DNA from: an uncultured Clostridia bacterium
GTDB lineage: Bacteria > Bacillota > Clostridia > Christensenellales > UBA1242
Assembly (NCBI GenBank): GCA_930990515.1
Contig: CAKNPS010000003.1
Span: 122,903-186,902 of the forward strand
Direction of reading: 5' to 3'
DNA length: 64,000 bases
How positions within the stretch are numbered: position 1 is the stretch's first letter; each line of letters opens with the position of its first letter. The notes beneath the pieces were generated by a model that ran no database searches, was not told the origin of the DNA, and was given only the letters and a program-made list of their open reading frames with translations. Shown here piece after piece: positions 3 to 63,183 of the stretch. The position numbers were made by a program, and so were the translations under genes.

Positions 3-3000
3 TATTTATCAGTAAATAGAGAAAGTGAGGCTTATCAAAATAAAGGTGTGGAAAACATTTACGGCACTTATAAGATTGTTTTCTATGCTAATGAACTTGA
101 AAATGGGGTTTTCTGTGAATATATTTTCAACTTAAGTGAAGCAAAAATCACTAATTTGGTGGTGGATAACTATTCAAATATCAATGACATTTCTATTGCT
201 GACCAAGTGATTGTTCCTTCTCAATATGGAATTTTGGAAATTAGTGTTGACCCAGTTGATGCTGAATTTGAAAGCTTCACAATTTCAAATAATACGATAA
301 ACTATAATGAAGGTGCTGGAGAGGCTGTTTTCACATTTGTTTATCAAACATCGACAAATGGCGTTCCTCAATTTGTTCCTGATATTGAATTTGGAAATTA
401 TCGAAATGGAACATTTACCTTCACATATGATGAAATGATTGACTATTTTAATGAATTAAACACTGCATTAGGACTTACTGGTTCTGATAGAATTGAATAC
501 AATGGTAGAATTTATATTCGCTATCTATTGTCATCTAGTGGAGTGGAAGATGGTATGCCAATAACCTTTGACATTTCTATGGATTATATGGATAACGGCT
601 TAACAAGTTATGAAACTCAAATTAATTTAACAACAAAACTTGCTAATTATGTTAATTTGTCGTTTGATGACAGAAATGAAAGTGATGTTTATTATGTTGC
701 AAGGGGACTAAGTTATGGAATGACACTTGATTACTATGGCTTTGGTCTTAGCGACATTCAAATCACTGTTTCAAACCCTGACATTGCGACTTTAACTGGA
801 GAAAACAGAAATTATAATCTTAACATCACTTCAAATGAAATTTCTTACACTGGTGATGTAGGGTATAGACTTGTTATTAATGTTTATGCTAGCCGTATAG
901 TAGACAATGTTACCATTGAATATTCTCAAGAAATTGTTGTATATGTCATGGAATATGTTTTCAATTATCAATATGTAGAGGGAGTCAATGAAGATTTGGT
1001 TAGGGGCATGAATGACGGCGTTATTTCAACTGCAATCGGAAATGCTTATACCTTGTCGTTTGATGTTTGGGATTTTATGGAATATGATTCTTCAAATGCA
1101 CAGGTTGTGGCAAGTGTTGAAAACTTCATAAATAACTTAACTAACTCTGTAGTCTTCCAAGTTCATAATAACGTTACAGGGATAACAGAAACTCTTGAAA
1201 CTGGAAAGGGCTTACGAGATGACTATTATATTATTAATGGTTATACGTTTACTGCGATAAGATTGTATGAACCAGCGCAAGATATATATTACTTTACAGC
1301 CAGCGGACAATATGCAATGAGTAATGGGGTATACATTTGTGAAGATAATTCAAATTATGAACAACACGAAATATACACTGTATTTACTTTCTCAATTCAT
1401 CAACAAAGCACTGACGAAAGTCCTTTGCCTATTGAAAGTTATGAAGACTTCTTAAATATGGAAGATGGAGAGTATTACATTTTACTTAACGATATTACAC
1501 TTCCTAATGAAGATAGTTTAGAATATGACCAATTTACTCCACTTGATGTTCAAATTGCTGGCTTTGATGGAAATGGCTATTCAATCATGATTGGTGGAAA
1601 TTATTCATTTGATAGCACAGTTCTAAATGCGGGTGTATTCACAACAATCGGTAATGCAACATTAACAAATGATGTTGTCTTTAAAAATGTCACTATTGAT
1701 ATTGTTTCCACAACCAATTTTGTTATGGCTGCAAATTCATTTACGGTTGGACTTCTTGCTGCAACAAATGATGCAATAATAACAAATTGCCAAGTTATTT
1801 CGTCAAACAATTCAGCAATTTCCATAACATACACAAACACTGTTTCTGGCTCGTATGTGGCTGGACTTGTGGGAAATAATAATGGAATAATCACAAATTC
1901 AATGACATCAATTGACATTTTGACAAGTGTAAACTTGGCTGGGTTTGTAGGAACGAATACGGGAACAATTTCGTCTTCGACATTTAGAGGAGGAAGCTTA
2001 ACAAACGATACAAACCTTTCAACTGAATACACTGCTGGGTTTGTTCTTCAAAATTCTGGAGAAATTTACACTTCTTATGTGTCTGGAGTGGAAGAAAATA
2101 TTGTTAGACCAAATAATGTTTATTATCAAGGAGATGATGATTTTATTCAATCTAGAAATACAATTGCTGGCTTTGTTTTCTTAAATTCTGGACTTGTTAG
2201 AGATTGTTATACAAATATCAATATGCAAGAAGCAGGTTCATTCTCTGCAGGATTCGTCTTTATGAATGAAACTGAAGGAGAAATTAGATCTTCTTTCTCA
2301 ACGAGCATATTATCAAGTTACAACACGCAAAGTTTTGGTTTTGCTAGAGCAAATAGTGGCTATATTTGGGATAGTTATTATCTTTCACAATTCTCTACAA
2401 TTTCTGAATCTAATATAGATACTCCAATTGTGTTAACAAATGTTAATGGAATTTATGGCAATGATATTAGTGTTACTGTTCCAGAAGATGTCAATGTGTC
2501 CATTTCAACACTTGATGCAAATCCTGATAGACATAATGTCAGAGCGTTGTCTTTAAGAGAATTTACAATTAGTGATGGTAGTAATTTTGAAGAAAACTTT
2601 AAAAATTTCACTCATACAACTTCAAGAAACTATAATTCAGTTTGGTTCTATAATTATGAAAATTCTTCTTCCACTTTCAATGGCAAAGTCTTTAATGTGA
2701 ATAGGTTAGAACTTGTTGCTCCAAACATTACTGCTTTCTCTCAAAGATATTTATATTCAACTGAAGAAATTGTGGATAGCGAAACTGGTGTAGTCACGGT
2801 TAGATACAATTATGCTAACACCGAGGCCGCAGGAGAAACAGGTAGTGCTTACAATCCTATCTTGCTTGACAGGGCGGAAACTTTTGAAAGTTATATCCTT
2901 AATGAGAATGACAGAAATAATTATAACTTTGCTTATTATAGAATTATTAATAACATTGATTATAGTGAATTTACATCTAATAGTCAGTTGTATACCACTC

Positions 3001-4709
3001 GATTTATGGGCTATATAGAAGGAAACTTCTTGACTGTTAGCAATATGCACATGGTTTCAAGTTCAAGTTTGCAACTCGCAGGTTTGTTTGCCGAAGTTGG
3101 AAGTTCGTCAAGAGTTGATGCAATTGGAACACTTTTAAATTTCAACTTTGAACCTGTGGAAATGGTATTCACTAATTCTCAAGCGGTCGGAGCGATTGCT
3201 GGAAGACTTGATAGTGGAACAATAGCAAATGTTAATGTTTTAAGCAACAATAACATGATGATTACTGGTAGAAATATTGTTGGTGGACTTGTTGGTGTGG
3301 CAATTGGAAATTATTTAATTTCAAATGTTGAATCATCACTTTCTGCAAGAGCAACTTATATTGCAGGAGAAAACAACAACTTTAACAGCAGTTCTACTGT
3401 TTATAGATATTATTCATTTGCAGGTTCTGTAATTGGTGTGGCAAGTGGTTCGGGACAATTAAATCAAATTGAAGTTAATTCAGGTGTTTCAATTATAGGT
3501 GCAAAAGTAGGTGGTTTGGTTGGATTTATTGACCAAAATGTGACTGCAAGAGAATTAACATTAACAATCACAGACGAATTTGTTATTAATGCCTTTAACT
3601 ATGGTGGACTTGTTGCTGGTGAAAGTGCAGGAACTGTGTCTGAAGTAAATGTTGTTGGAACAGGTAGTTTTATGCAAATCTTTTCAATGCTTCCATACAC
3701 GCCATCTGCGGTTGGTGGGTTTGCTGGACTTGTAAGTGGTGGAATTTATGATAATATTAACATTTCTCAAAGTCTTGACTTGAGCGACACGACATCAACA
3801 ACAGGAATTTTAAGCGTTGGTGGATTTGCTGGACTAGTAAACGATAACACTGAAATGAATGATATTCACATTAATGCAAGTTTTACAGCATTTATGACGC
3901 TTGGTGGACTTATTGGAACACTAGATGGCGAACTTGTTAGTTTGAGCATCACAAACTTTAGTTATAATGGCAACTTAAACATTCTTAGCACATCTGTTTC
4001 TGAAGTAAATATTGGTGGTGTTATAGGTCTTGTTGATTCTCAAGCGAGCATAACGATTGATGCAACTTTAAGTGAAAATGCTCAAAGTGATATACAAACA
4101 GCGATAGATAACCATGCTAATTATGAAAATGTTGAAAGTTCAATAACAAATCTTAGCACTCTTTCTACAGATTTTGCAGTAGACACAAATGGTGTGCTTT
4201 CTGAAAGTTATAGAAATTCTGCAAATACTATTAATATAAATTCAGAAATAACTATTTATGTTTATAATGCTAATTCAATTATCAACTATGGCGAAATTGT
4301 AGGAACATTAGGAGCAGGTTCTATTGATGTTAAAAACACAATTTCAACTTCAACTGTTGTTGCTGGAATTTATGATATGGTTTCTTCTTCATTTGAAGAA
4401 AATGTGGCAACTTTGGCTGTGGTAAGCGGGGAATATAAATATTCTGATGGTGTAAGTGAAGATCCTTTAACAGCAATAGGTTTTACAAATGAATTAGAAG
4501 GCAATATTAGTCATAGGATTTTAAGTAACGGCGGATATGTAAAGGAGAGTTTTGCAGGAGATGTTAGTCATTTGGCTCCTGTATATAGTCAAAATATTAC
4601 TTTTACAACTTACACATCAACTTCATCAGTCGGTGGAGTTAGTTATAGAATGAATGTAAACAACATTGGAGCATGTGTTGACAATACATTTTTAGGAATT
4701 GTAGCATAA
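3..4709 (+). CDS. Very large surface/secreted protein with GLUG-type repeats; 5' end probably truncated by the window edge
   Basis: The reading frame is open from nt 3. There is no in-frame stop upstream of the GTG at 48 used by the ORF track, and no SD or signal peptide at that GTG. The product has many degenerate units such as VAGLVGNNNGIITNS, LAGFVGTNTGTISSS, IAGFVFLNSGLVRDCY and VGGLVGVAIGNYLISN, which I recognise as GLUG-motif repeats of bacterial surface proteins. Confidence 0.6.
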   Translation, partial: YLSVNRESEAYQNKGVENIYGTYKIVFYANELENGVFCEYIFNLSEAKITNLVVDNYSNINDISIADQVIVPSQYGILEISVDPVDAEFESFTISNNTINYNEGAGEAVFTFVYQTSTNGVPQFVPDIEFGNYRNGTFTFTYDEMIDYFNELNTALGLTGSDRIEYNGRIYIRYLLSSSGVEDGMPITFDISMDYMDNGLTSYETQINLTTKLANYVNLSFDDRNESDVYYVARGLSYGMTLDYYGFGLSDIQITVSNPDIATLTGENRNYNLNITSNEISYTGDVGYRLVINVYASRIVDNVTIEYSQEIVVYVMEYVFNYQYVEGVNEDLVRGMNDGVISTAIGNAYTLSFDVWDFMEYDSSNAQVVASVENFINNLTNSVVFQVHNNVTGITETLETGKGLRDDYYIINGYTFTAIRLYEPAQDIYYFTASGQYAMSNGVYICEDNSNYEQHEIYTVFTFSIHQQSTDESPLPIESYEDFLNMEDGEYYILLNDITLPNEDSLEYDQFTPLDVQIAGFDGNGYSIMIGGNYSFDSTVLNAGVFTTIGNATLTNDVVFKNVTIDIVSTTNFVMAANSFTVGLLAATNDAIITNCQVISSNNSAISITYTNTVSGSYVAGLVGNNNGIITNSMTSIDILTSVNLAGFVGTNTGTISSSTFRGGSLTNDTNLSTEYTAGFVLQNSGEIYTSYVSGVEENIVRPNNVYYQGDDDFIQSRNTIAGFVFLNSGLVRDCYTNINMQEAGSFSAGFVFMNETEGEIRSSFSTSILSSYNTQSFGFARANSGYIWDSYYLSQFSTISESNIDTPIVLTNVNGIYGNDISVTVPEDVNVSISTLDANPDRHNVRALSLREFTISDGSNFEENFKNFTHTTSRNYNSVWFYNYENSSSTFNGKVFNVNRLELVAPNITAFSQRYLYSTEEIVDSETGVVTVRYNYANTEAAGETGSAYNPILLDRAETFESYILNENDRNNYNFAYYRIINNIDYSEFTSNSQLYTTRFMGYIEGNFLTVSNMHMVSSSSLQLAGLFAEVGSSSRVDAIGTLLNFNFEPVEMVFTNSQAVGAIAGRLDSGTIANVNVLSNNNMMITGRNIVGGLVGVAIGNYLISNVESSLSARATYIAGENNNFNSSSTVYRYYSFAGSVIGVASGSGQLNQIEVNSGVSIIGAKVGGLVGFIDQNVTARELTLTITDEFVINAFNYGGLVAGESAGTVSEVNVVGTGSFMQIFSMLPYTPSAVGGFAGLVSGGIYDNINISQSLDLSDTTSTTGILSVGGFAGLVNDNTEMNDIHINASFTAFMTLGGLIGTLDGELVSLSITNFSYNGNLNILSTSVSEVNIGGVIGLVDSQASITIDATLSENAQSDIQTAIDNHANYENVESSITNLSTLSTDFAVDTNGVLSESYRNSANTININSEITIYVYNANSIINYGEIVGTLGAGSIDVKNTISTSTVVAGIYDMVSSSFEENVATLAVVSGEYKYSDGVSEDPLTAIGFTNELEGNISHRILSNGGYVKESFAGDVSHLAPVYSQNITFTTYTSTSSVGGVSYRMNVNNIGACVDNTFLGIVA

Positions 4710-8100: not shown

Positions 8101-8831
8101 GTTGGAAAGTGGCAACTCCAGCATTCGATGGTGCTGATGTTGGCAAAATCCAAGAACTTCTCAAAGAAAACAACTTCCCAGAAGATGGAAAAGTTCAACT
8201 TTATGACGGAAGAACAGGTGAACCATTTGAAAACAAGACAACTATTGGTATTAAGTATATGCTTAAACTTAACCACATGGTTGACAGCAAAATTCACGCT
8301 CGTTCAATTGGGCCTTACTCACTTATCACTCAACAACCACTTGGTGGTAAAGCACTCTTCGGTGGTCAAAGATTTGGTGAAATGGAAGTTTGGGCTCTTG
8401 AAGCTTATGGTGCTTCTCATGTTCTTCAAGAAATGCTCACTGTTAAATCTGATGATGTTGTTGGACGTGTTAAGACATTTGAAGCAATTGTTAAGGGCGA
8501 ACCTATTTCTGAACCTGGAATCCCAGAGTCATTCAAGGTTCTTGTGAAAGAACTTCAAGCTCTTGCTCTTGATGTTAAGATTTTGACTGAAAATGACGAA
8601 GAAATTGACTTGCCAGAACTTTCACAAGACGAACACGATAAACCAAGTCTTGAAAATGAAGTGGAAAATGACCTTAAGAATGTCACTCTTGACCTTGACG
8701 AAATTGTCAACTCAAATGGTGATGAAGAAGAAAAGAAGAGTGATATTGAAGAAGCAATCGAAGAACAAACTTCAACAGCAGGACTTGACGATATTGACTT
8801 GTTTGACGACTTTGGAGATTTTGACGAATAA
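5118..8831 (+). CDS. rpoB: DNA-directed RNA polymerase subunit beta
   Basis: 1237-aa ORF with unmistakable RpoB blocks (RRSATYSIPL, GPGGIRKERA, NMQRQAVPL, GDKMSGRYGNKGV, GGQRFGEMEVWALEAYGA). SD aggggtg lies upstream. The C-terminal tail is long and acidic. Confidence 0.98.
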   Translation: MSVAIKKQKFGNAERYTFSQLKSYIDIPPLLEIQRNSFQDFLKNGIREVLDEFSPIVDYSGKAKLYFLDIVMDKEPKYSKKECKRRSATYSIPLNVKARFVVEETGQAVEDVVFLGDIPYMTEDCSFIFNGVERVVVNQIIKSPNYYLLRDNNQDNSTLVGQIIPKRGMYIEVKQGANEVLNIVLDRRNRITLGLFLKCFGYTADEICKLFGDHRLVKHVLEKETQQTQEEALLEFARKTRPADVPSAETTRSYLNLWFFSDQYYNLSRVGRYNLNKKLSIAKRITGQQAAEDIVTEDGEILVRKGMEIDAETANKIKASGINEVWLQLPDKKYLVRGNNRVRLSDVFPCDEKELGILEEVYYPVLKEILKENKTKEKRLQAIKERAKDLMITTLTMDDILASISMYLDVLEGIAKTDKIEHLSNKRIATVGELFYDHFRSGITKLVSNVRETLQGKELSEVTPRQIVNPKAVNRALRDFVASSQLSQLMDQVNPLSGITQKRRVSAVGPGGIRKERANAEIRDIHYTNYGRICPIETPEGQAIGLVNTLTSYAKVNEYGFLETPYRKVDKETGVVSDKCEYYMADIEDTAYIAQATEPLDEQGRFINKRIICRHKDYVIDVPAKQVDLVDASPRQFISVATSLIPFLNSNEANRALMGANMQRQAVPLLRPESPVVGTGMEEIVARDCGHCLICKNDGVVSYVSADEVRVKNSDGDEDIYTLTKFEKTNDETCVNQKPCVKKGDKVKKGQVIVDGYSCENGELALGKNVLIGYMNWEGYNFEDAIIINERLVKEDVYTSICLKVEELKCRTTKLGDEQITRDIPNLGEEALKNLDENGIIRIGAEVRPGDILVGKVSPKGETELSPEERLLRAIFGEKAREVRDTSLRVQHGKGGVVVDVQVFSRKNKDELEPGVNELVKVFIAQKRKLSVGDKMSGRYGNKGVVSIVMPEADMPFMANGKPLDIILNPLGVPARMNLGQVLEVHLGLVAGSLGWKVATPAFDGADVGKIQELLKENNFPEDGKVQLYDGRTGEPFENKTTIGIKYMLKLNHMVDSKIHARSIGPYSLITQQPLGGKALFGGQRFGEMEVWALEAYGASHVLQEMLTVKSDDVVGRVKTFEAIVKGEPISEPGIPESFKVLVKELQALALDVKILTENDEEIDLPELSQDEHDKPSLENEVENDLKNVTLDLDEIVNSNGDEEEKKSDIEEAIEEQTSTAGLDDIDLFDDFGDFDE

Positions 8832-8833
8832 TT

Positions 8834-8957
8834 CTGGGGTGGCACCAATAGTTTTTAACGCGGACACGGCTTTGCCTAACCGCTAAACTCTCGGTTCCCC
8901 GTCCCACCTACCCCTCCATTAGAGGGGCGAAAATGAAAATAAGATTTCCATTTTCGC
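8834..8957 (+). other. GC-rich structured element in the rpoB-rpoC spacer (possible small RNA or processing/regulatory structure)
   Basis: About 58% G+C by hand count over 8834-8930, in a genome of roughly 32% G+C. Hairpins: cccctc (8911-8916)/gagggg (8922-8927); cgaaaatg (8928-8935)/cattttcg (8949-8956); gcgg..ggc ttt gcc..ccgc (about 8859-8883). ggtgg (8838-8842) can pair with ccacc (8904-8908). Confidence 0.4.
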
Positions 8958-9070
8958 AATTAAGACAATTAAATTAAATAGAAAATGGTGCTTTATACAA
9001 ATACTAAAAATGAAAGAGAATTATAAACTTACAAAAGAGAATATATAGAAATTAATTTTAGGGGATTGTT

Positions 9071-14209: not shown

Positions 14210-14239
14210 AATGCATACAAAATCTGTATGCATTTTTTA
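14207..14239 (+). terminator. Rho-independent terminator
   Basis: atgcataca (14211-14219)/tgtatgcat (14225-14233), followed by tttttt. Confidence 0.8.
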
Positions 14240-14351
14240 AAAAATTAGATATTTTTAATGTTTTTTAGATTTTTTGTGCAAAAAAATCAATTTTTTCATT
14301 TTTTATAACTTTTTTGCTAAATTTATCATATTTAAAAGAGTAAAATATTAA

Positions 14352-14733: not shown

Positions 14734-15300
14734 ATGGCTACAAAAACATTAAAATTATCATCATTAAATCCAGCTGAATATCCAGACGTTGAAGTTGAAT
14801 GCGAAGTAATTGGTGATATGAAGGCTTATGCCGAAGCACTTATTGAATATCAAAAATCACAAGGTGTTAAAGTTGAAAGTGCTAAAAAAACTGCAAGAGT
14901 TTCTGCTAGACTTGGAAAAATTGGTGAAGAAGTTGACACTAGACCAAGAGTTAGAAGAGATGGTAAGGTTTATGTTATTGGTGAGACAAAAGGTAAAGTT
15001 AAAGTTGAAGGAAGTATGATAGTTCAAAATCCAGATGGTGAAGAATATATTGTAAAACCTGATAAATTTGATGCTAAATATAAAGCAACTGAAACTCCTG
15101 GTGTTTATGAACCAAAGGACCAACCAATTAAATATATCCCAATAACAAAAGATATAACTTTCTTAGCTCCTTGGGGAGAAGAAATGTTTGGTGTTAAAGG
15201 TGCAGTTTTAAATGTTTCAAATTTAGATGATATCTATGCAATTCAAAATGAAGCATTTGAAAAAACTTATACACCTGTAAAACAAGAAAAAACTAAGTGA
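14734..15300 (+). CDS. Conserved-looking hypothetical protein (188 aa)
   Basis: ORF with a strong SD (aaaggagaag) and its own promoter and terminator. No family recognised with confidence. Confidence 0.6.
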   Translation: MATKTLKLSSLNPAEYPDVEVECEVIGDMKAYAEALIEYQKSQGVKVESAKKTARVSARLGKIGEEVDTRPRVRRDGKVYVIGETKGKVKVEGSMIVQNPDGEEYIVKPDKFDAKYKATETPGVYEPKDQPIKYIPITKDITFLAPWGEEMFGVKGAVLNVSNLDDIYAIQNEAFEKTYTPVKQEKTK

Positions 15301-15310
15301 TAATACAAAT

Positions 15311-15341
15311 AAAAACACATACTTACTGTATGTGTTTTTTG
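15311..15341. terminator. Bidirectional rho-independent terminator
   Basis: acacatac (15315-15322)/gtatgtgt (15328-15335), with an A-run on the left and a T-run on the right. It can serve both the + gene and the minus-strand tRNA transcript. Confidence 0.7.
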
Positions 15342-15451
15342 TTAATAGTTGTGTTTATAAAATTTGTCTATTTTAGCATTTAAAAAGATATGTTAAAAGA
15401 TAAAGAATGCCCACAATTTAGACATCCCTTATCTTAATTTTATTTATGTAT

Positions 15452-15537
15452 TGGTGCAGGTGGAGGGGGTCGAACCCTCATGAAGTCGCCTTCGCGGGAT
15501 TTTGAGTCCCGTGCGTCTGCCATTCCGCCACACCTGC
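15452..15537 (-). tRNA. tRNA-Leu (anticodon CAA), CCA encoded
   Basis: Reverse complement: GCAGGTG TG GCGGAATGGCAGACGC A CGGGA CTCAAAA TCCCG, long variable arm, GAGGG TTCGACC CCCTC CACCTGC A CCA. This is a class II cloverleaf with anticodon loop CU-CAA-AA. Confidence 0.93.
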
Positions 15538-15551
15538 TTACGTCGCAAACT

Positions 15552-16075
15552 GCACTTCATTTCGACTTTTGCCTAATGCCAAAAGTCTTACCATTCGCTT
15601 GTTTGCTCCTTTTTCCCAAAAATGACAAGCATTTTCGGGAACCCTATTGTGAGTGCACTTCATTTCGACTTTTGCCTAATGCCAAAAGTCTTACCATTCG
15701 TTTGTTTGCTCCTTTTTCCCAAAAATGACAAGCATTTTCGGGAGCCCTGATAGTTCTGCACTTCATTTCGACTTTTGCCTAGGATTTTATCAAGTTAAAT
15801 AAAACTTATAAAATCTTAAAAACAGTCGTTGACTGTCCCAAAAATGACAAACATTTTTGGGAACCCTGATAGTTCTGCACTTCATTTCGACTTTTGCCTA
15901 GGATTTTATCAAGTTAAATAAAACTTATAAAATCTTAAAAATAGTCGTTGACTGTCCCAAAAATGACAAACATTTTCGGGAATCCTGTTGTGAGTGCGCT
16001 TCATTTCAACTTTTGCCTAGGATTTTATAAAGTTAAACTAAACTTAAAAATCTTAAATGCAGTCTAGACTAGCAA
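15552..16075. repeat. Five tandem hairpin-rich repeat units: A1 15552-15654, A2 15655-15757, B1 15758-15876, B2 15877-15994, and a diverged B3 from 15995 to about 16075
   Basis: The block gcacttcatttcgacttttgcct recurs at 15552, 15655, 15758, 15877 and 15995 (periods 103, 103, 119, 118). The block cccaaaaatgacaaRcattttYggga recurs four times. Type A and type B units differ in their central 40 versus 56 nt. Confidence 0.9.
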
Positions 16076-16118
16076 ATGTTTAATCATAACGAAACGGGGT
16101 GTTTCGTTAACGCTTTTA

Positions 16119-16147
16119 ATATTACCACATTTTATTAAGATTTGCAA
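16119..16147 (-). promoter_or_regulatory. Minus-strand promoter reading into the repeat array and tRNA-Leu(CAA)
   Basis: On the minus strand: TTGCAA (16147-16142), 17-nt spacer, TGgTAATAT (hexamer 16124-16119). No terminator lies between it and the tRNA. Confidence 0.5.
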
Positions 16148-16185
16148 GTAATTTTCTTTATTTTTTATTTTTACTTCAATTTTTC

Positions 16186-16214
16186 TTGCAAATTTTTCTT
16201 TTTCTAGATATAAT
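16186..16214 (+). promoter_or_regulatory. Promoter of recJ
   Basis: TTGCAA (16186-16191), 17-nt spacer, TATAAT (16209-16214). Confidence 0.6.
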
Positions 16215-16247
16215 ATATATGAAAGTATTTTTTAAGGTAAAACGACA

Positions 16248-18593
16248 ATGATTTTTAAGAAATTTTTTAACCAAAACTCCGCACTCGTAAAGGAGTATGC
16301 GGAAAAATTCCAAGTTTTACCATCAACAATGTATCTTATTTTATCTCGTGGATTTAAGACTGAAGAGGAAATTGCTGATTTTCTTTCAATACCAAAACTT
16401 TTGGACCCTTTCCTTATTAAAGGTATGAAAGAACTTTGTGAAAGAATTGATTTAGCGAAAAAATTAGGCGACAGAGTTTTAATTTTTGGTGACTATGATG
16501 TTGACGGCATAAGTGCCACGGCGATAATGCTAAAAACCTTGAAAAAACTTGGAATTCAAGCAGATTTTTATTTACCAAACCGCTATGTTGACGGTTATGG
16601 TTTATCATGCGATGTGATTGACAAAATTGAAAAGAAGTTTTGTTCTGACCTTATCATCACAGTTGACTGTGGTATTTCTTGCTATGAAGAAGTGGAATAT
16701 GCCAAGAAAAAAGGGATTGACATCATTATAACTGACCACCACGAAATTCCAGAAAAAATTCCTGACACTTTGGTTTTAAATGCAAAAATAAAGGGACAAG
16801 ATTATCCGTTTACGGAAATTTGCGGAACTGGTATGGCATACAAAATTTCTGAAGCACTTTTAGGGCAAAAAAAGGCGGAAGAATTTTTACCTATTGCGAC
16901 CATTGCAACCATTGCTGACATTGTTTCTCTCACTGGAGAAAACCGAAACATTGTTAAACGCGGATTTCAGTGTTTTGACAAGTTGCCAACCGGGCTTAAA
17001 CAACTTTTCAAAGATAACAAAGTTTCACTTTCAAATCCAAGTGCCACTGACATTGCTTTTAAGATTTCGCCAAAAATCAACTCATCTGGAAGAATGGGAC
17101 ATGCGGAAGACAGTTTGATGTTATATTTAAGCGAAGACCCTGTTGAAATTAGGAAATATCTTAATAAGATTTCTGAACATAACTCAAAACGCCAAGAACT
17201 TTCTGCAAAGATTATGGAAGATTGCGAAAAAGCAATTAAGAAAATGGATTTATCTAAAATTCGTGTGATTACACTTGCATCTAAAAAGTGGGACCAAGGA
17301 GTTTTGGGGATTGCTTGTGCAAGGCTTGTGGAAGAATATAACAGACCAGTCTTCTTATTCTCTCAAGTAGGCGACACCTTACACGGCTCTGGGCGAAGTA
17401 TTGACGACATCAATATACATGAGTTATTGTCATCAATGAGTGACATTTTGGAAACTTTTGGCGGGCACACAATGGCAGCGGGACTAACACTCAAAAGAGC
17501 AAAATATGAAGAATTTTCGAATCGTGTTAATGCTTTTGTTTTTGAGCATATAAATGATAAAGTGTTCATACCTATAAAATATTACGACCTTGACATCAAG
17601 TTAGAAGAAATTGACGAAAGATTTTTGAAAGAATTAAAACTTTTAGAACCTTTTGGTTGTGACAATCCAAAACCAAAATTCAAAATCACGGCAGAAAATG
17701 TCGACATTCAACCTATGCGATTTAATGGGCTTCACGCAAACATCAAGATTGGAGATTTAGAACTTGCATATTTTAATTTTTACAAAAACTTTAATCCACT
17801 TTTCTTTTCAAGATATAAATCATTTATTTTCGAATTTCAAGAAAATGGAAAGAAGGGTATGGTTTCCGATTTCGATGCGGGAAGTTTCATAATCGACAAT
17901 GCACATACTTACACATATCCAATTCAACTTGAGCATTACTTGTATGACGAAGGGGAAGCAAATTTTGCATACTATCCAGAGAGTGAACTTTTAAACTTTG
18001 TGGCAAGCACGCAAAGTGGAGTTTATGGCACTTGTTTTGTGACTTATTCTGCTTATGATTTTGTCAATTTTCTCAAAAATTACACCAAAGATAATTTATA
18101 CCATATTGGCATTTATGACGAAAACTGCATAGGTTATAACAGTCTTCTTCTTGCGCCTCGTGGAACTGCTTGGGCACAAAATTTCAGTAAAATCATCTTT
18201 TTGTCACCGGTTTTGGACAGTGGGTTTATTAGTGAAATTCAAAAGATTTCTAATGCTGAAATATATTTGCCAATGGGTGCTAAAGAAGACAAAAATAGAT
18301 ATAATAATATCAACTTGTCAAGGGAAAGTTTTGGCAGAGTGTTTAAGGCTCTTACATCTAAAACTGGGAATTTTTACTCGCCAGCAGATTTTTATGAGCA
18401 TAGGCTTAAATGTAAAGTTTCTTTCGACACATTTTATGTTGCCTTTCTCACTTTTAAGGAACTTGGGCTTATCAAAAAGGCAGACGACAATTATTTTAAC
18501 TATTTTGAAGTAAAAAATGTTAAAAAACCTTTGACAGATTCGAAATTTTATAATAAATTATTATTGATTAAAAATTCTTGGGGTAAAAAATGA
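16248..18593 (+). CDS. recJ: Single-stranded-DNA-specific exonuclease RecJ
   Basis: DHH-family motifs FGDYDVDGISA, TVDCGIS, ITDHHE and FGGHTMAAG. 781 aa. Confidence 0.9.
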   Translation: MIFKKFFNQNSALVKEYAEKFQVLPSTMYLILSRGFKTEEEIADFLSIPKLLDPFLIKGMKELCERIDLAKKLGDRVLIFGDYDVDGISATAIMLKTLKKLGIQADFYLPNRYVDGYGLSCDVIDKIEKKFCSDLIITVDCGISCYEEVEYAKKKGIDIIITDHHEIPEKIPDTLVLNAKIKGQDYPFTEICGTGMAYKISEALLGQKKAEEFLPIATIATIADIVSLTGENRNIVKRGFQCFDKLPTGLKQLFKDNKVSLSNPSATDIAFKISPKINSSGRMGHAEDSLMLYLSEDPVEIRKYLNKISEHNSKRQELSAKIMEDCEKAIKKMDLSKIRVITLASKKWDQGVLGIACARLVEEYNRPVFLFSQVGDTLHGSGRSIDDINIHELLSSMSDILETFGGHTMAAGLTLKRAKYEEFSNRVNAFVFEHINDKVFIPIKYYDLDIKLEEIDERFLKELKLLEPFGCDNPKPKFKITAENVDIQPMRFNGLHANIKIGDLELAYFNFYKNFNPLFFSRYKSFIFEFQENGKKGMVSDFDAGSFIIDNAHTYTYPIQLEHYLYDEGEANFAYYPESELLNFVASTQSGVYGTCFVTYSAYDFVNFLKNYTKDNLYHIGIYDENCIGYNSLLLAPRGTAWAQNFSKIIFLSPVLDSGFISEIQKISNAEIYLPMGAKEDKNRYNNINLSRESFGRVFKALTSKTGNFYSPADFYEHRLKCKVSFDTFYVAFLTFKELGLIKKADDNYFNYFEVKNVKKPLTDSKFYNKLLLIKNSWGKK

Positions 18594-30472: not shown

Positions 30473-30505
30473 AAAAAAATCTGCTAAAAAATGCAGATTT
30501 TTTTA
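30473..30505. terminator. Bidirectional terminator between convergent genes
   Basis: aaaaatctgc / gcagattttt, with flanking A- and T-runs. Confidence 0.7.
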
Positions 30506-30580
30506 ATTTTTAATGAATTTTTTGTGCGATTTTATAATATTTTTAATTTTTTATGTGTTTTTTATTAATTTTTAATTAAT

Positions 30581-31192
30581 TTAAATTTTGTAATTTTCAA
30601 TAATTTTTGGTTTTCTTGTTGTATCAAGTTCGTAAAATTCATCACTTAATTCCATTAATTTATAGCGATTATGATTTGACCTTTCAAATTGTTCATGGAG
30701 TTCCTCGTTAGAAAATTTATAACCACCTTCTTTAACTCTTCGTTCCACTCTTTCAACATTTATTTGATTAAAAGTTGGAGATAAAAAGAAAGAAACAATT
30801 TTATAACCTCTTTGTTTAAACATTTCAACAAGTTCAAGTTTTGTTGTTTTTGCGATTGATGTTTCAAGCACAAGAGCATCATTTTTATTCATTATATCTT
30901 TTGAAAGTTTAAAGATAAATTGATTTGATTCTTCCAGTCTTTTTTCTCTTGGTTTAATCTCTTGAAAATACATTCTTGCAAAGACTTCCGCTCCAACATA
31001 GCGAATACCATTTAATTTTCCTTGTTTGTATAAACTTGCGATTAATGTTGATTTTCCGCTTCCGTTTGGACCAGCAAAAACATATAAAATTCCTTTTTTA
31101 CCTTTGATATTGACATTTTCGCTTAAAATTTTGTAAGTTTCAGAATATGGCAAAACTTCAAATCCTTTTAACCCTTCTCTTATTTCTTCCAT
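30581..31192 (-). CDS. Zeta-toxin/COG4185-like P-loop kinase (203 aa)
   Basis: Walker A in VFAGPNGSGKSTLIASL, in a small kinase of about 200 aa. I moved the start to MEEIREG (31192), which follows SD aagaggt and a TTGACA-17-TATACT promoter. The ORF-track start lies inside the -35 box. Confidence 0.6.
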   Translation of the reverse strand: MEEIREGLKGFEVLPYSETYKILSENVNIKGKKGILYVFAGPNGSGKSTLIASLYKQGKLNGIRYVGAEVFARMYFQEIKPREKRLEESNQFIFKLSKDIMNKNDALVLETSIAKTTKLELVEMFKQRGYKIVSFFLSPTFNQINVERVERRVKEGGYKFSNEELHEQFERSNHNRYKLMELSDEFYELDTTRKPKIIENYKI

Positions 31193-42441: not shown

Positions 42442-42458
42442 ATTTATTCGACTTTTAT

Positions 42459-42487
42459 ATTATAGTTAAATCATTTAGGTTTGTCAA
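42459..42487 (-). promoter_or_regulatory. Promoter of tRNA-Leu(AAG)
   Basis: On the minus strand: TTGACA (42487-42482), 17-nt spacer, TATAAT (42464-42459), about 18 nt before the mature 5' end. Confidence 0.65.
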
Positions 42488-42660
42488 CAATTTTTCTAAT
42501 ATTTTTTAAATTTTATGATTTTTTAACCTTTTACATCAAAAATTTGGTAAATTATGTTTTTTTCAACATATTGAAAAATGTGAAAATAAAATTGAAAAAA
42601 TATCTTAATGATAAGAAATTTATTTGATTTTTTTTAATATATAGTGATATACTATTAAAT

Positions 42661-47723: not shown

Positions 47724-47752
47724 TTGCATTTTTGGCTAAATTATGATATAAT
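47724..47752 (+). promoter_or_regulatory. Promoter of the large non-coding RNA
   Basis: TTGCAT (47724-47729), 17-nt spacer, TGaTATAAT (hexamer 47747-47752). A second possible extended -10 (TGcTAGAAT) lies near 47694-47702. Confidence 0.6.
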
Positions 47753-47758
47753 ATATAT

Positions 47759-48308
47759 TGAAGGTGCAGTATTCTAGTCATTTTCCATATTTTAGGAAGA
47801 TGAAGTAATGGCATCGACGGGCATATCTGTGAAGTTTCTGGTGCTTGCCTTGGTTGCCCAAACTGGGGTAGGTGCTGGAAGTTAAGATTTTTGGGCGAGT
47901 TATAACGGCATATAACATCCGTCCCAATTTTCGTGGAGACCTAGCAGGGTGAGAAATCACTCTATAGGTATGAACCTGCATTGCGGTAAAAGTCGTGTGC
48001 AGCGTAGCCTAGCCTGAGTGGACATTTTGGGATTAAGTTTAAACGCGAATTCTTTCTTGGCCATGAGAGTTTACGCCTGCTTATGAAATTATGTTTGCAA
48101 AACGGAAGAATAATTTATGGAAAATGTTAAGGAAAACTTCTAGACTGTTGCGTTTGCAGGCAGAGTAAGGATTATAGTGTGTTCTAAGTGGCGATTCGGT
48201 GTTATGTTCTGCTTAAAAGGAAACTGCTCTAAAGCGGTGACGCGGAGTGCGGAAATGGGAAATCCGACCGAACCTATGACACAAGGTTTACTTACTTTGT
48301 CACCTTCA
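47759..48308 (+). ncRNA. Large (about 550 nt) structured non-coding RNA of uncertain class (OLE-like by context; ROOL-like by size)
   Basis: No plausible ORF on either strand, and visibly GC-richer than its flanks. The 5' end tgaaggtg (47759-47766), at the predicted TSS, pairs perfectly with caccttca (48301-48308) immediately before the terminator. Internal hairpins include gttata acggca tataac (47899-47916) and gcg GTGA cgc (48234-48243). Confidence 0.75.
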
Positions 48309-48339
48309 TATAGAGCCTAAAAAGGCTCTATATTTTTTT
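48308..48339 (+). terminator. Rho-independent terminator of the large ncRNA
   Basis: atatagagcc taaaaa ggctctatat, followed by ttttttt. Confidence 0.85.
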
Positions 48340-63001: not shown

Positions 63002-63050
63002 TTTGTAATATTATTTGCTTAAAAATTTTGTAATATTATTTGCTTAAAAA
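63002..63050 (+). repeat. Tandem 24/25-bp duplication carrying the -35 element of the downstream lipoprotein promoter
   Basis: tttgtaatattatttgcttaaaaa (63002-63025) is followed by ttttgtaatattatttgcttaaaaa (63026-63050). TTGCTT of copy 2 (63040-63045) lies 17 nt from TATAAT (63063-63068). Confidence 0.85.
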
Positions 63051-63183
63051 TAAAGAATTAGTTATAATATAACATATGAGGAAATATCGCAAATCATTTT
63101 TATTGTTTTATATTGTTACATTTGCAATTTTTAGTTGTGCTATTTTATTAGTAGGATGTATAAATTCTTCTTCATCTGAAAAT

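Follow-up and report, generated by a model that had tools for sequence, protein, structure and literature searches.

A structured interspersed repeat forms a strain-variable tandem array in the putative leader of a tRNA-Leu(CAA) gene of an uncultured Clostridia bacterium

The stretch of DNA analysed here (the window) comprises 64,000 nucleotides of contig CAKNPS010000003.1 of an uncultured Clostridia bacterium (assembly GCA_930990515.1). An intact tRNA-Leu(CAA) gene was detected at 15452–15537 on the minus strand with ARAGORN and with the Rfam tRNA model (56.4 bits), which places an array of tandem repeats, the subject of this study, immediately 5′ of the gene, at 15552–16073 on the same strand. 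The far edge of the spacer holding the array is marked by a divergent recJ promoter (TTGCAA-17-TATAAT) on the plus strand at 16186–16214, found outside the array by the promoter scan with 10 of 12 matches, and RecJ domains were identified in the open reading frame (ORF) at 16248–18593.

The array was found to consist of two 103-bp units (type A), two 119-bp units (type B) and a diverged fifth unit. A preliminary description of this DNA had reported five hairpin-rich tandem units 5′ of tRNA-Leu(CAA), and Tandem Repeats Finder, a repeat search and motif counts agree that these are real. Tandem Repeats Finder returned a period of 103 bp at 15549–15781 (2.3 copies, 93% matches) and one of 119 bp at 15717–16064 (2.9 copies, 91% matches), and the repeat search gave two 103-nt copies that are 91% identical and three 119-nt copies (100, 97 and 71%). 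By the new parsing both B units are 119 bp long, one of them having previously been given as 118 bp. The 23-mer GCACTTCATTTCGACTTTTGCCT occurs five times, at 15552, 15655, 15758, 15877 and 15996 (the last with two mismatches), and the 26-nt hairpin CCCAAAAATGACAARCATTTTYGGGA occurs four times in the array; no occurrence of either is expected by chance, and neither was found again outside the array in the window. Blocks of 23–26 nt identity are thus common to all units. The A units have a G+C content of 40.9%, against 32.1% for the window and 25.1% for its non-ORF DNA, an excess in base composition which fits inserted or constrained sequence.

Unit A1 (15552–15654, minus strand), which adjoins the tRNA gene, is the only complete copy of the repeated element in the window. 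A complete element consists of a 12-bp hairpin (hp2), then a core made up of a helix (P1), a purine-rich internal loop and a hairpin (P2), and then a tail. In A1, hp2 lies at 15639–15615, the 5′ strand of P1 (GCAAAC) at 15606–15601 and P2 at 15587–15564, with the internal loop sequences AAGCGAAUGGUAA and GAAAUGAAGUGC. The tail, AGTTTGCGACGTAA, lies at 15538–15551 (minus strand), and 3 nt separate its end from the mature 5′ end of the tRNA. It includes the 3′ strand of P1, GTTTGC (15550–15545), 8 nt before the tRNA, which is predicted to pair with the GCAAAC of the unit in a helix that covaries across the element family. A covariance model of the element, described below, matched A1 over its full length (15529–15618, 101.4 bits), and the fold of the unit has a z of −5.0. 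Unit A2 (15655–15757, minus strand) contains hp2 (15742–15718) and P2 (15690–15667) and was matched at 15638–15721 with 67.7 bits; it is a truncated copy, as the 3′ strand of P1 is missing.

The B units, which score only about 16 bits, were recognised as rearranged copies from the sequence and the promoter scan. In B1 (15758–15876, minus strand), hp2 (15862–15837) is followed by a weak terminator-like hairpin, ACAGTCAACGACTGT, with a run of five T at 15836–15818, by a promoter-like TTTATA-17-TGaTAAAAT at 15812–15784 and by the 3′ half of the core only (GGCAAAAGTCGAAATGAAGTGC). B2 (15877–15995, minus strand) is organised as B1, is 97% identical to it and has its promoter-like site at 15931–15903. 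The place of the 5′ half of the core is therefore taken in both by the weak hairpin with its T-run and by an AT-rich hairpin containing the extended −10-like TGaTAAAAT. The fifth unit (15996–16087, minus strand), likewise rearranged, consists of a half-core (AGGCAAAAGTTGAAATGAAGCGC), a B-like central segment and then spacer; it is 71% identical to the B units and is present in every strain compared, even in those with two units.

A promoter with a −35 element TTGCAA (16147–16142), a 17-nt spacer and an extended −10 element TG-g-TAATAT (16127–16119) can be read directly from the minus strand, as the preliminary description had stated. The same architecture is present 5′ of the orthologous tRNA gene in ten conspecific contigs (L001–L010; loci are cited by such numbers) and in five contigs of more distant relatives (L090–L094), covering at least six related species, and 16147–16119 is therefore regarded as the ancestral promoter of the tRNA. 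The array lies between this promoter and the mature 5′ end of the tRNA on the same strand, which is the position previously assigned to it, and would from this arrangement form part of a 5′ leader of about 575 nt. Directly after the promoter, the transcript is predicted to begin with a stem-loop, AACGAAAC-ACCCC-GTTTCGTT (16088–16108, minus strand). Its pairing is retained by two-sided changes in L007 (GGGAC/GTCCC) and in L057 (GCAAC/GTTGC); L009 carries two uncompensated changes.

The choice of strand by folding energy was uninformative (z of −4.9 for the minus and −6.1 for the plus strand). However, the helices of the element family contain 65 G-U pairs against 9 A-C mismatches when read on the tRNA strand, and the commonest P2 loop is of the GNRA type; the folded strand is therefore the minus strand, as had been suspected earlier from the hairpin variants. 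In hp2, the lineage of the window most often shows G-U. A likeness to the 5′ flank of the second tRNA-Leu gene had also been remarked upon and is real. At 42442–42496 on the minus strand, tRNA-Leu(AAG) has a textbook TTGACA-17-TATAAT promoter, after which comes aAAAGTCGAAtaAATg; its short leader, ataAAAGTCGAAtaAATg, has 10 consecutive bases in common with the 3′ half of the core. The leader of the orthologous tRNA-Leu(AAG) in L016 (agaaaagcaaatatgttgt) is only loosely similar.

The promoter at 16147–16119 had been taken as the only one reading this DNA, a view that needs amending as the promoter scan detected further promoter-like sites on the minus strand within the B units. These sites invite an explanation in which the B units would be tandem small RNA (sRNA) genes, each with its own promoter and terminator, producing an RNA of about 80 nt from near GGCAAAAGUCG to the hairpin ACAGUCAACGACUGU followed by five U. 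Each B unit does carry the extended −10 promoter-like TTTATA-17-TGaTAAAAT (9 of 12 matches plus the TG), with a hairpin and T-run before each such site; L057 has retained TTGATAAAAT in its B units and L007 in its last unit, and the putative 5′ end matches the leader start of the separately promoted tRNA-Leu(AAG). However, the supposed terminator hairpin has only 5–6 bp, no terminator was called within the array by the terminator scan, and the hairpin is missing from the minimum-free-energy fold of the putative 79-nt RNA, for which z is only −2.2. It is also degenerate in the fifth unit and in L007. Promoter-like hexamers are, moreover, common in DNA of 32% G+C (10 in the region against 4.6 expected), and one strain has no B unit (L007) and another just one (L009). 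Tandem sRNA genes are thus considered very unlikely, and the weak terminator-like hairpins of the B units could interrupt read-through to the tRNA.

Judged by sequence comparison, the type A unit is a copy of an element of about 75–90 nt that is dispersed in the genomes of related uncultured Clostridia. A scan with its 20-nt head motif, using one genome per species, gave about 30 loci in about 12 related Clostridia metagenome-assembled genomes (MAGs), with about 10 loci in BRZ_EH__bin128 alone and 4–6 each in E14__bin171 and in Candidatus Caccovivens faecavium; in unrelated phyla there were single chance matches. A covariance model was then built from 29 complete copies and searched against the loci retrieved, which include 14 from a metagenome scan, and 61 copies were found with E < 1e-10. 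As the relatives are fragmented MAGs in pieces of 1–15 kb, the copy counts for a genome are minimum values, and a partner gene present in single copy would escape detection. At the pattern-matched loci examined the copies are all intergenic and lie in either orientation relative to their neighbours. The picture of a leader purpose-built for this one locus therefore has to be given up.

No relevant Rfam 15 family was found in the window at gathering thresholds, in 15300–16300 at permissive settings or in the complete-element loci of six relatives. The matches above threshold in the window were the OLE RNA and two tRNAs only, and the permissive scan yielded sub-threshold chance hits. The absence of a matching RNA family agrees with the preliminary description, whose author knew of no described element of this organisation. 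An origin from phages was rejected, as a distant blastn search of a phage collection gave no match; core patterns were seen at two loci on viral contigs and are chance matches, since the covariance model fails to recognise them.

Comparison of the copies gave a well-defined structure. On the minus-strand reading, P1 occurs as GCAAAC/GTTTGC, ACAAAC/GTTTGT, GGCGAAAAC/GTTTTCGCC, AGGCTAAAAC/GTTTTAGCCT and GGAAGAAAC/GTTTCTTCC, with AAC/GTT invariant at its inner end. The two strands of the internal loop have the consensus GAAUGGUAA and GAAAUGAA (9 and 8 nt), and the core consensus further includes a two-pair helix (R-Y, C-G). P2 has the consensus GACUUUUGgC, a tetraloop and GaCAAAAGUY, the loops being mostly GNRA (GAAA in 15 copies, GUAA in 10, GCAA in 3 and GUGA in 1). 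The tail (GYGCRGUUUGYGACGC) resembles the first 16 nt or so of tRNA-Leu. The hairpin hp2 is a separate module, because relatives have it in both orientations with respect to the core. An additional helix between GCACTCATTTC, upstream of hp2, and GAAATGAAGYGC was rejected, as the Y in question covaries with the internal R (24 G-C, 25 A-U and 10 G-U) and not with the upstream segment.

Covariation in the hairpins, which the preliminary description had proposed to check, was found in both P1 and P2 across the family. In a hand-defined alignment of the 29 complete cores, which preceded any fitting of a model, paired cells make up 91.7% and two-sided changes occur at 6 of the 20 pairs, and none of 500 shuffles matched the observed covariation score or percentage paired. 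The alignment of the 61 hits is model-fitted and so biased to the structure of the model, but gives the same picture, with 11 of 20 pairs changing on both sides (114 cells) and 89.8% of cells pairing, against 30–45% with slid partners. At least six unrelated P2 sequences retain the hairpin, and the internal loop stays near-constant. It should be noted that compensatory variants inside arrays may spread by gene conversion, and as such they neither prove nor disprove selection.

These features are those expected if the units were functional structured RNA modules, in which the core would be a new non-coding RNA motif that binds a protein or another RNA and is released from the tRNA precursor by RNase P, with tandem copies raising the dose, or in which A1 would govern the 5′ maturation or stability of pre-tRNA-Leu. 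The strong covariation, an internal loop (CGAAUGGUAA/GAAAUGAAG) that is almost invariant where both helices vary, the GNRA loops, the preponderance of G-U on the tRNA strand and the G+C content of the A units, far above that of intergenic DNA, all point in this direction. Yet no promoter or terminator of their own can be recognised for the dispersed copies, whose orientation relative to flanking genes varies; P1 is possible in one unit of the array only, and half of the core is missing from the B units. The strand-biased tolerance of G-T would be expected of a hairpin in single-stranded DNA too. A functional RNA is considered unlikely, though possible.

Comparison within the family bears also on a short ORF of the A units, for which a peptide of 17–18 residues (MVRLLALGKSRNEV..) had been proposed. 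Both A units do have AAGGAG 11 nt before an ATG, opening ORFs of 17 and 18 codons. However, among the 61 family members the frame from the same ATG ends after 2, 6, 10, 17–21 or more than 24 codons, with differing stops, and six copies have no ATG. Many copies have AAGCGAAG or GGCGAAAAC instead of AAGGAG, and a compensatory change in P2 (G-C to A-U) creates a stop codon. A coding function is hardly credible.

To follow the array within the species, ten metagenome contigs that encode an identical 188-aa protein neighbouring the tRNA were compared (the identical protein occurs on many more). Nine of the ten have an array in the tRNA-recJ spacer, with two units in L007, three in L009, four in L002, L003, L004, L006, L008 and L010, and six in L001, the window having five. 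The numbers and mixes of A and B modules differ between contigs, but every array has one A unit at the tRNA and the diverged last unit at the promoter. In the tenth contig (L005, 4568–6600), the 3′ end of tRNA-Leu(CAA) is interrupted, at the equivalent of about 15452 in the window, by an element that carries the gene for a large serine recombinase of 509 aa (domains Resolvase, Recombinase and Zn_ribbon_recom), with the sequence leaving the tRNA after TGGTGC; the far end of this element and any array lie outside the stretch examined, which thus contains no array. It was also seen that four of the contigs (L003, L006, L008 and L009, at about 2790–3540) carry a gene for a 249-aa methyltransferase on the minus strand, in the place corresponding to between 14209 and 14734 of the window; it is absent from the window and from other strains.

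Two sister species (L057 and L026) have arrays too, with different orders of units, so that the array persists in at least three species-level lineages. More distant relatives were reached through RecJ homologues of 70–81% identity, and five of the contigs obtained have tRNA-Leu(CAA) beside recJ. In L090, L091, L092 and L094 these genes adjoin each other directly and diverge, and in L093 another gene lies between them. All five have kept the promoter before the tRNA, as CTTG(C/T)(A/C)A-17-TGnTA(A/T)A(A/C)T, and in none did the covariance model detect a core upstream of it. Their leaders are about 24, 60, 80, 170 and 190 nt long, against about 275 nt in L007, 575 nt in the window and 665 nt in L001. 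Given the missing core and the short leaders in these relatives, it is concluded that the repeats were inserted in the lineage of the window and then expanded. Persistence in at least three species speaks for a functional RNA, but the free variation in unit number, from 2 to 6, and the orthologous tRNA-Leu(CAA) genes of relatives, which function without the element, speak against it. A neutral minisatellite, which the preliminary description had weighed as the opposite case, agrees with this hypervariable unit number and with the absence of the array in distant relatives; the compensatory changes do not agree with it, and the array is therefore not a structureless minisatellite.

The position of the element relative to tRNA genes was found to be recurrent. 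In the window, L007, L026 and L057 the tail ends 1–3 nt 5′ of an intact tRNA-Leu(CAA). In L049, L055 (TAG), L013 (CAG) and L042, L054, L085 (TAA-like), the tail continues directly as a tRNA-Leu body from the D-loop GGCAGACGC onwards. In these chimeras (L049 777–924, L055 7380–7560, L013 5860–6011, L042 6200–6413, L054 7780–7968 and L085 4403–4650) positions 1 to about 16 of tRNA-Leu are replaced by a sequence of the same length that is unable to form the D-stem. Two chimeras are called as tRNAs by ARAGORN, and the Rfam tRNA model is silent in both of those scanned (L013 and L049). Among the TAA-like bodies, an insert of about 75 nt follows the anticodon in L042 and L085, and L054 ends in other repeat modules. 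A variant class of the core lies antisense, 0–4 nt from the CCA end of tmRNA, tRNA-Trp and tRNA-Thr genes (L061 7372–7463, L068 2514–2605, L051 5267–5358, L086 5496–5586 and L031 115–206), with P1 GGCGAAAAC/GTTTTCGCC and P2 CTTTTCGAA/TTCGAAAAG. This pattern may have arisen because acceptor-stem DNA is targeted or because the element descends from a tRNA-Leu leader.

It is conceivable, if rather unlikely, that the core is a structured nucleic-acid element of a new class, one linked to tRNA genes by its mechanism. It could be mobile and recognise acceptor-stem DNA, or it could be an RNA by which the 5′ part of tRNA-Leu precursors is controlled or replaced; in the latter case the tandem array of the window would represent a form of this RNA with variable dosage. 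The tail would then mimic the 5′ acceptor and D region of tRNA-Leu, and P1 would pair a leader segment with this mimic. The sense orientation of the element directly 5′ of tRNA-Leu genes or remnants with four anticodons also adds to the case for a functional RNA. A purely DNA-level explanation was given less weight still and is regarded as quite unlikely: a recombinase or single-strand transposase directed at the ends of tRNA genes would use the element as a strand-specific hairpin substrate, and the array would have grown by serial insertion, each copy entering beside the tRNA-like tail of the one before it, and not by unequal crossing-over. The tail does abut tRNA termini in three kinds of junction (5′ of tRNA-Leu(CAA), in the D-loop of three other tRNA-Leu bodies, and antisense at CCA ends), has the length of the 5′ part of tRNA-Leu and is partly identical to it. 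The invariant AAC/GTT, the lack of orientation bias relative to transcription and the serine-recombinase element inside the same tRNA in L005 are further points in its favour. However, no recombinase or transposase is linked to the element at the loci examined, the junctions inside the array lie at shared homologies, as recombination between units predicts, and the units there are truncated and not complete insertions.

In relatives, inverted copies of GTCGCGACTTAAAGAGGTTTTGATTA flank or end many copies of the element, and TA comes after several right-hand ends and before one left end. The suggestion, made from the array alone, that the units might match a MITE (a transposable element of the miniature inverted-repeat type) or insertion sequence (IS) end scattered genome-wide is accordingly borne out in part: the family is scattered in related genomes and some copies have ends like terminal inverted repeats, but no known family was matched. 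When the ORFs of at least 90 aa at 36 loci were clustered, the only family that recurred near copies was one of large surface proteins, and Pfam scans of this family and of a few other neighbours gave surface and housekeeping proteins only.

Two further observations concern other intergenic repeats in these genomes. The rpoB-rpoC spacer, the only comparable one, holds different repeats in sister genomes, a difference which fits a turnover of intergenic elements. In the window this spacer contains a relatively G+C-rich insert of about 130 nt (GGGGTGGCACC...TTAACGCGGACACGG...CTAACCGCTAAACTC) at 8831–8960 on the plus strand, and L026 has a complete core element in its place. The insert gave no blast match among the retrieved loci and no Rfam hit at gathering thresholds, and is loosely like a repeat beside the surface-protein genes of BRZ_EH__bin128. 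In the same genome, L025, L039, L046, L066, L068 and L069 contain intergenic arrays of short, differing hairpins with the constant spacer motif CAGTGAAGG, which often come directly after the tail of the core element and constitute another repeat family.

The interpretation favoured here, with somewhat better than even confidence, is that a structured repeat of the BOX/ERIC/MITE kind was inserted in the leader, amplified in tandem, is co-transcribed from the conserved promoter and is removed by RNase P, with no function required of the array. A small interspersed repeat would have been inserted, in this lineage specifically, between the ancestral promoter and tRNA-Leu(CAA). Unequal recombination or replication slippage between the shared blocks most likely built the array and keeps altering its length. 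The promoter at 16147–16119 is expected to read through the array, which would thereby become the greater part of the leader of the tRNA-Leu(CAA) precursor; local hairpins probably form in the leader RNA, and cleavage by RNase P at the 5′ end of the tRNA would remove it. The conservation of the core would reflect whatever propagates or maintains the family, and a dedicated function of the array is not needed as an explanation.

Several points weigh against insertion and amplification of such a repeat. Within the window the covariance model finds the element at the array locus only, and the inverted GTCGCGACTTAAAGAGGTTTTGATTA module is present neither there nor in L026 and L057. The mobility of the element is presumed, no empty site having been found in the loci compared, and no transposase was seen near the copies in the clustered ORFs of the 36 loci, a few of whose neighbouring proteins were scanned against Pfam. 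Random insertion would not produce the association with tRNA ends. A functional RNA, rather than the interior of a typical MITE, would be expected to show the G-U bias, the GNRA loops and the near-invariant internal loop, and the array has been kept through the three or more species-level lineages. The history of the array is better established than its function.

On the reading as an inserted repeat, the array shows a route by which a tRNA leader can become hundreds of nucleotides long, repetitive and variable between strains, and it offers a typing marker for an abundant lineage of uncultured gut Clostridia. It also brings to light a repeat family, so far uncatalogued, whose covariation is unusually clean and whose purine-rich internal loop is near-invariant; the family is a candidate for a new protein-recognised motif in RNA or single-stranded DNA. 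The recurrent junctions with tRNA and tmRNA ends give a starting point for asking how target sites are chosen by small bacterial repeats.

Elsewhere in the window, a full-length OLE (ornate, large, extremophilic) RNA was detected at 47745–48322 on the plus strand with 351 bits against a threshold of 50, which places the organism among the anaerobic Firmicutes carrying OLE. A perfect 25-bp direct repeat in two copies (TTTGTAATATTATTTGCTTAAAAAT) is located at 63002–63051, and further AT-rich short tandem repeats are located at 14239–14316 and 30500–30594.

The array and the element were compared with a number of known systems. A CRISPR array was rejected, in agreement with the preliminary description, because the segments between the 23-mer and the 26-mer are themselves duplicated with 91–97% identity. 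The attC sites of integrons have R″ (RYYYAAC) and R′ (GTTRRRY) boxes with a short unpaired spacer and are complete in each cassette. They too were rejected: AAC/GTT is invariant in the present element, but the boxes otherwise fail to match, its internal loop is much larger, and no R′-like strand is present in the array-internal units. Tandem sRNA genes such as LhrC1-5 of Listeria and Qrr of Vibrio form head-to-tail units of about 100–120 nt with hairpins, each with a strong promoter, an intrinsic terminator and a conserved seed, whereas in the present array weak candidate signals are confined to the B units and the number of units is not conserved. In Escherichia coli, the 3′ external transcribed spacer (3′ETS) of glyW-cysT-leuZ is a tRNA-Leu precursor spacer released as an sRNA sponge; it is short and single-copy, and its base-pairing has been demonstrated. 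The array would likewise be a transcribed spacer of a tRNA-Leu precursor, set free by RNase processing as a separate, structured RNA, but one in a long, repetitive and variable 5′ leader with no known target.

Repetitive extragenic palindromes (REP) measure about 20–40 nt, with a conserved 5′ tetranucleotide of the GTAG type, and strand-asymmetric mismatches occur in them. The core described here, of 75–90 nt with a large conserved internal loop, falls outside the definition of REP and REPIN sequences. No RAYT gene turned up near the copies, RAYT genes not having been searched for as such. REP, BIME and REPIN sequences, which RAYT transposases mobilise, are hairpin-forming extragenic repeats that occur singly, as inverted pairs or in clusters and persist vertically in a lineage (PMC3116915, PMC3337134).

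The resemblance to MITEs such as Correia and Nezha is broader, as the element is likewise shorter than 200 bp, multi-copy, intergenic, highly base-paired and found in either orientation, traits which are among the listed criteria for MITEs (PMC3049150). In relatives the copy number is in keeping with this, with the roughly 10 loci of BRZ_EH__bin128, and some copies there have terminal-inverted-repeat-like ends, several right ends being followed by TA. However, the AT-richness typical of MITEs is not shared, the A units being richer in G+C than the genome; the conserved part is the interior and not the termini; and the copies in the window are without terminal inverted repeats. No partner IS was found and no target-site duplication demonstrated at the loci compared. 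The ERIC/IRU sequences of enterobacteria are imperfect palindromes and resemble the element in the same general traits.

The BOX elements of pneumococci are modular, have an internal module in strain-variable tandem arrays, fold when transcribed and cluster with other repeats (PMC3049150). Like BOX, with its boxA, variable boxB and boxC, the present element is a small composite intergenic repeat with stem-loops predicted to form when it is co-transcribed with neighbouring genes, and the conspecific contigs, with 2–6 units and with A and B modules varying in number and order, show modularity of the same type. The likeness drawn here is one of organisation. The units here are 103–119 bp long against 45 bp for boxB, and there are few loci in the lineage of the window against about 100 for BOX. 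Literature searches for tRNA-Leu-linked MITEs or repetitive tRNA leaders gave nothing relevant. The element is classed here as a small interspersed structured repeat, previously undescribed and outside the named families, and what sets it apart from BOX is a covarying two-helix core, a conserved internal loop and a tie to the ends of tRNA genes.

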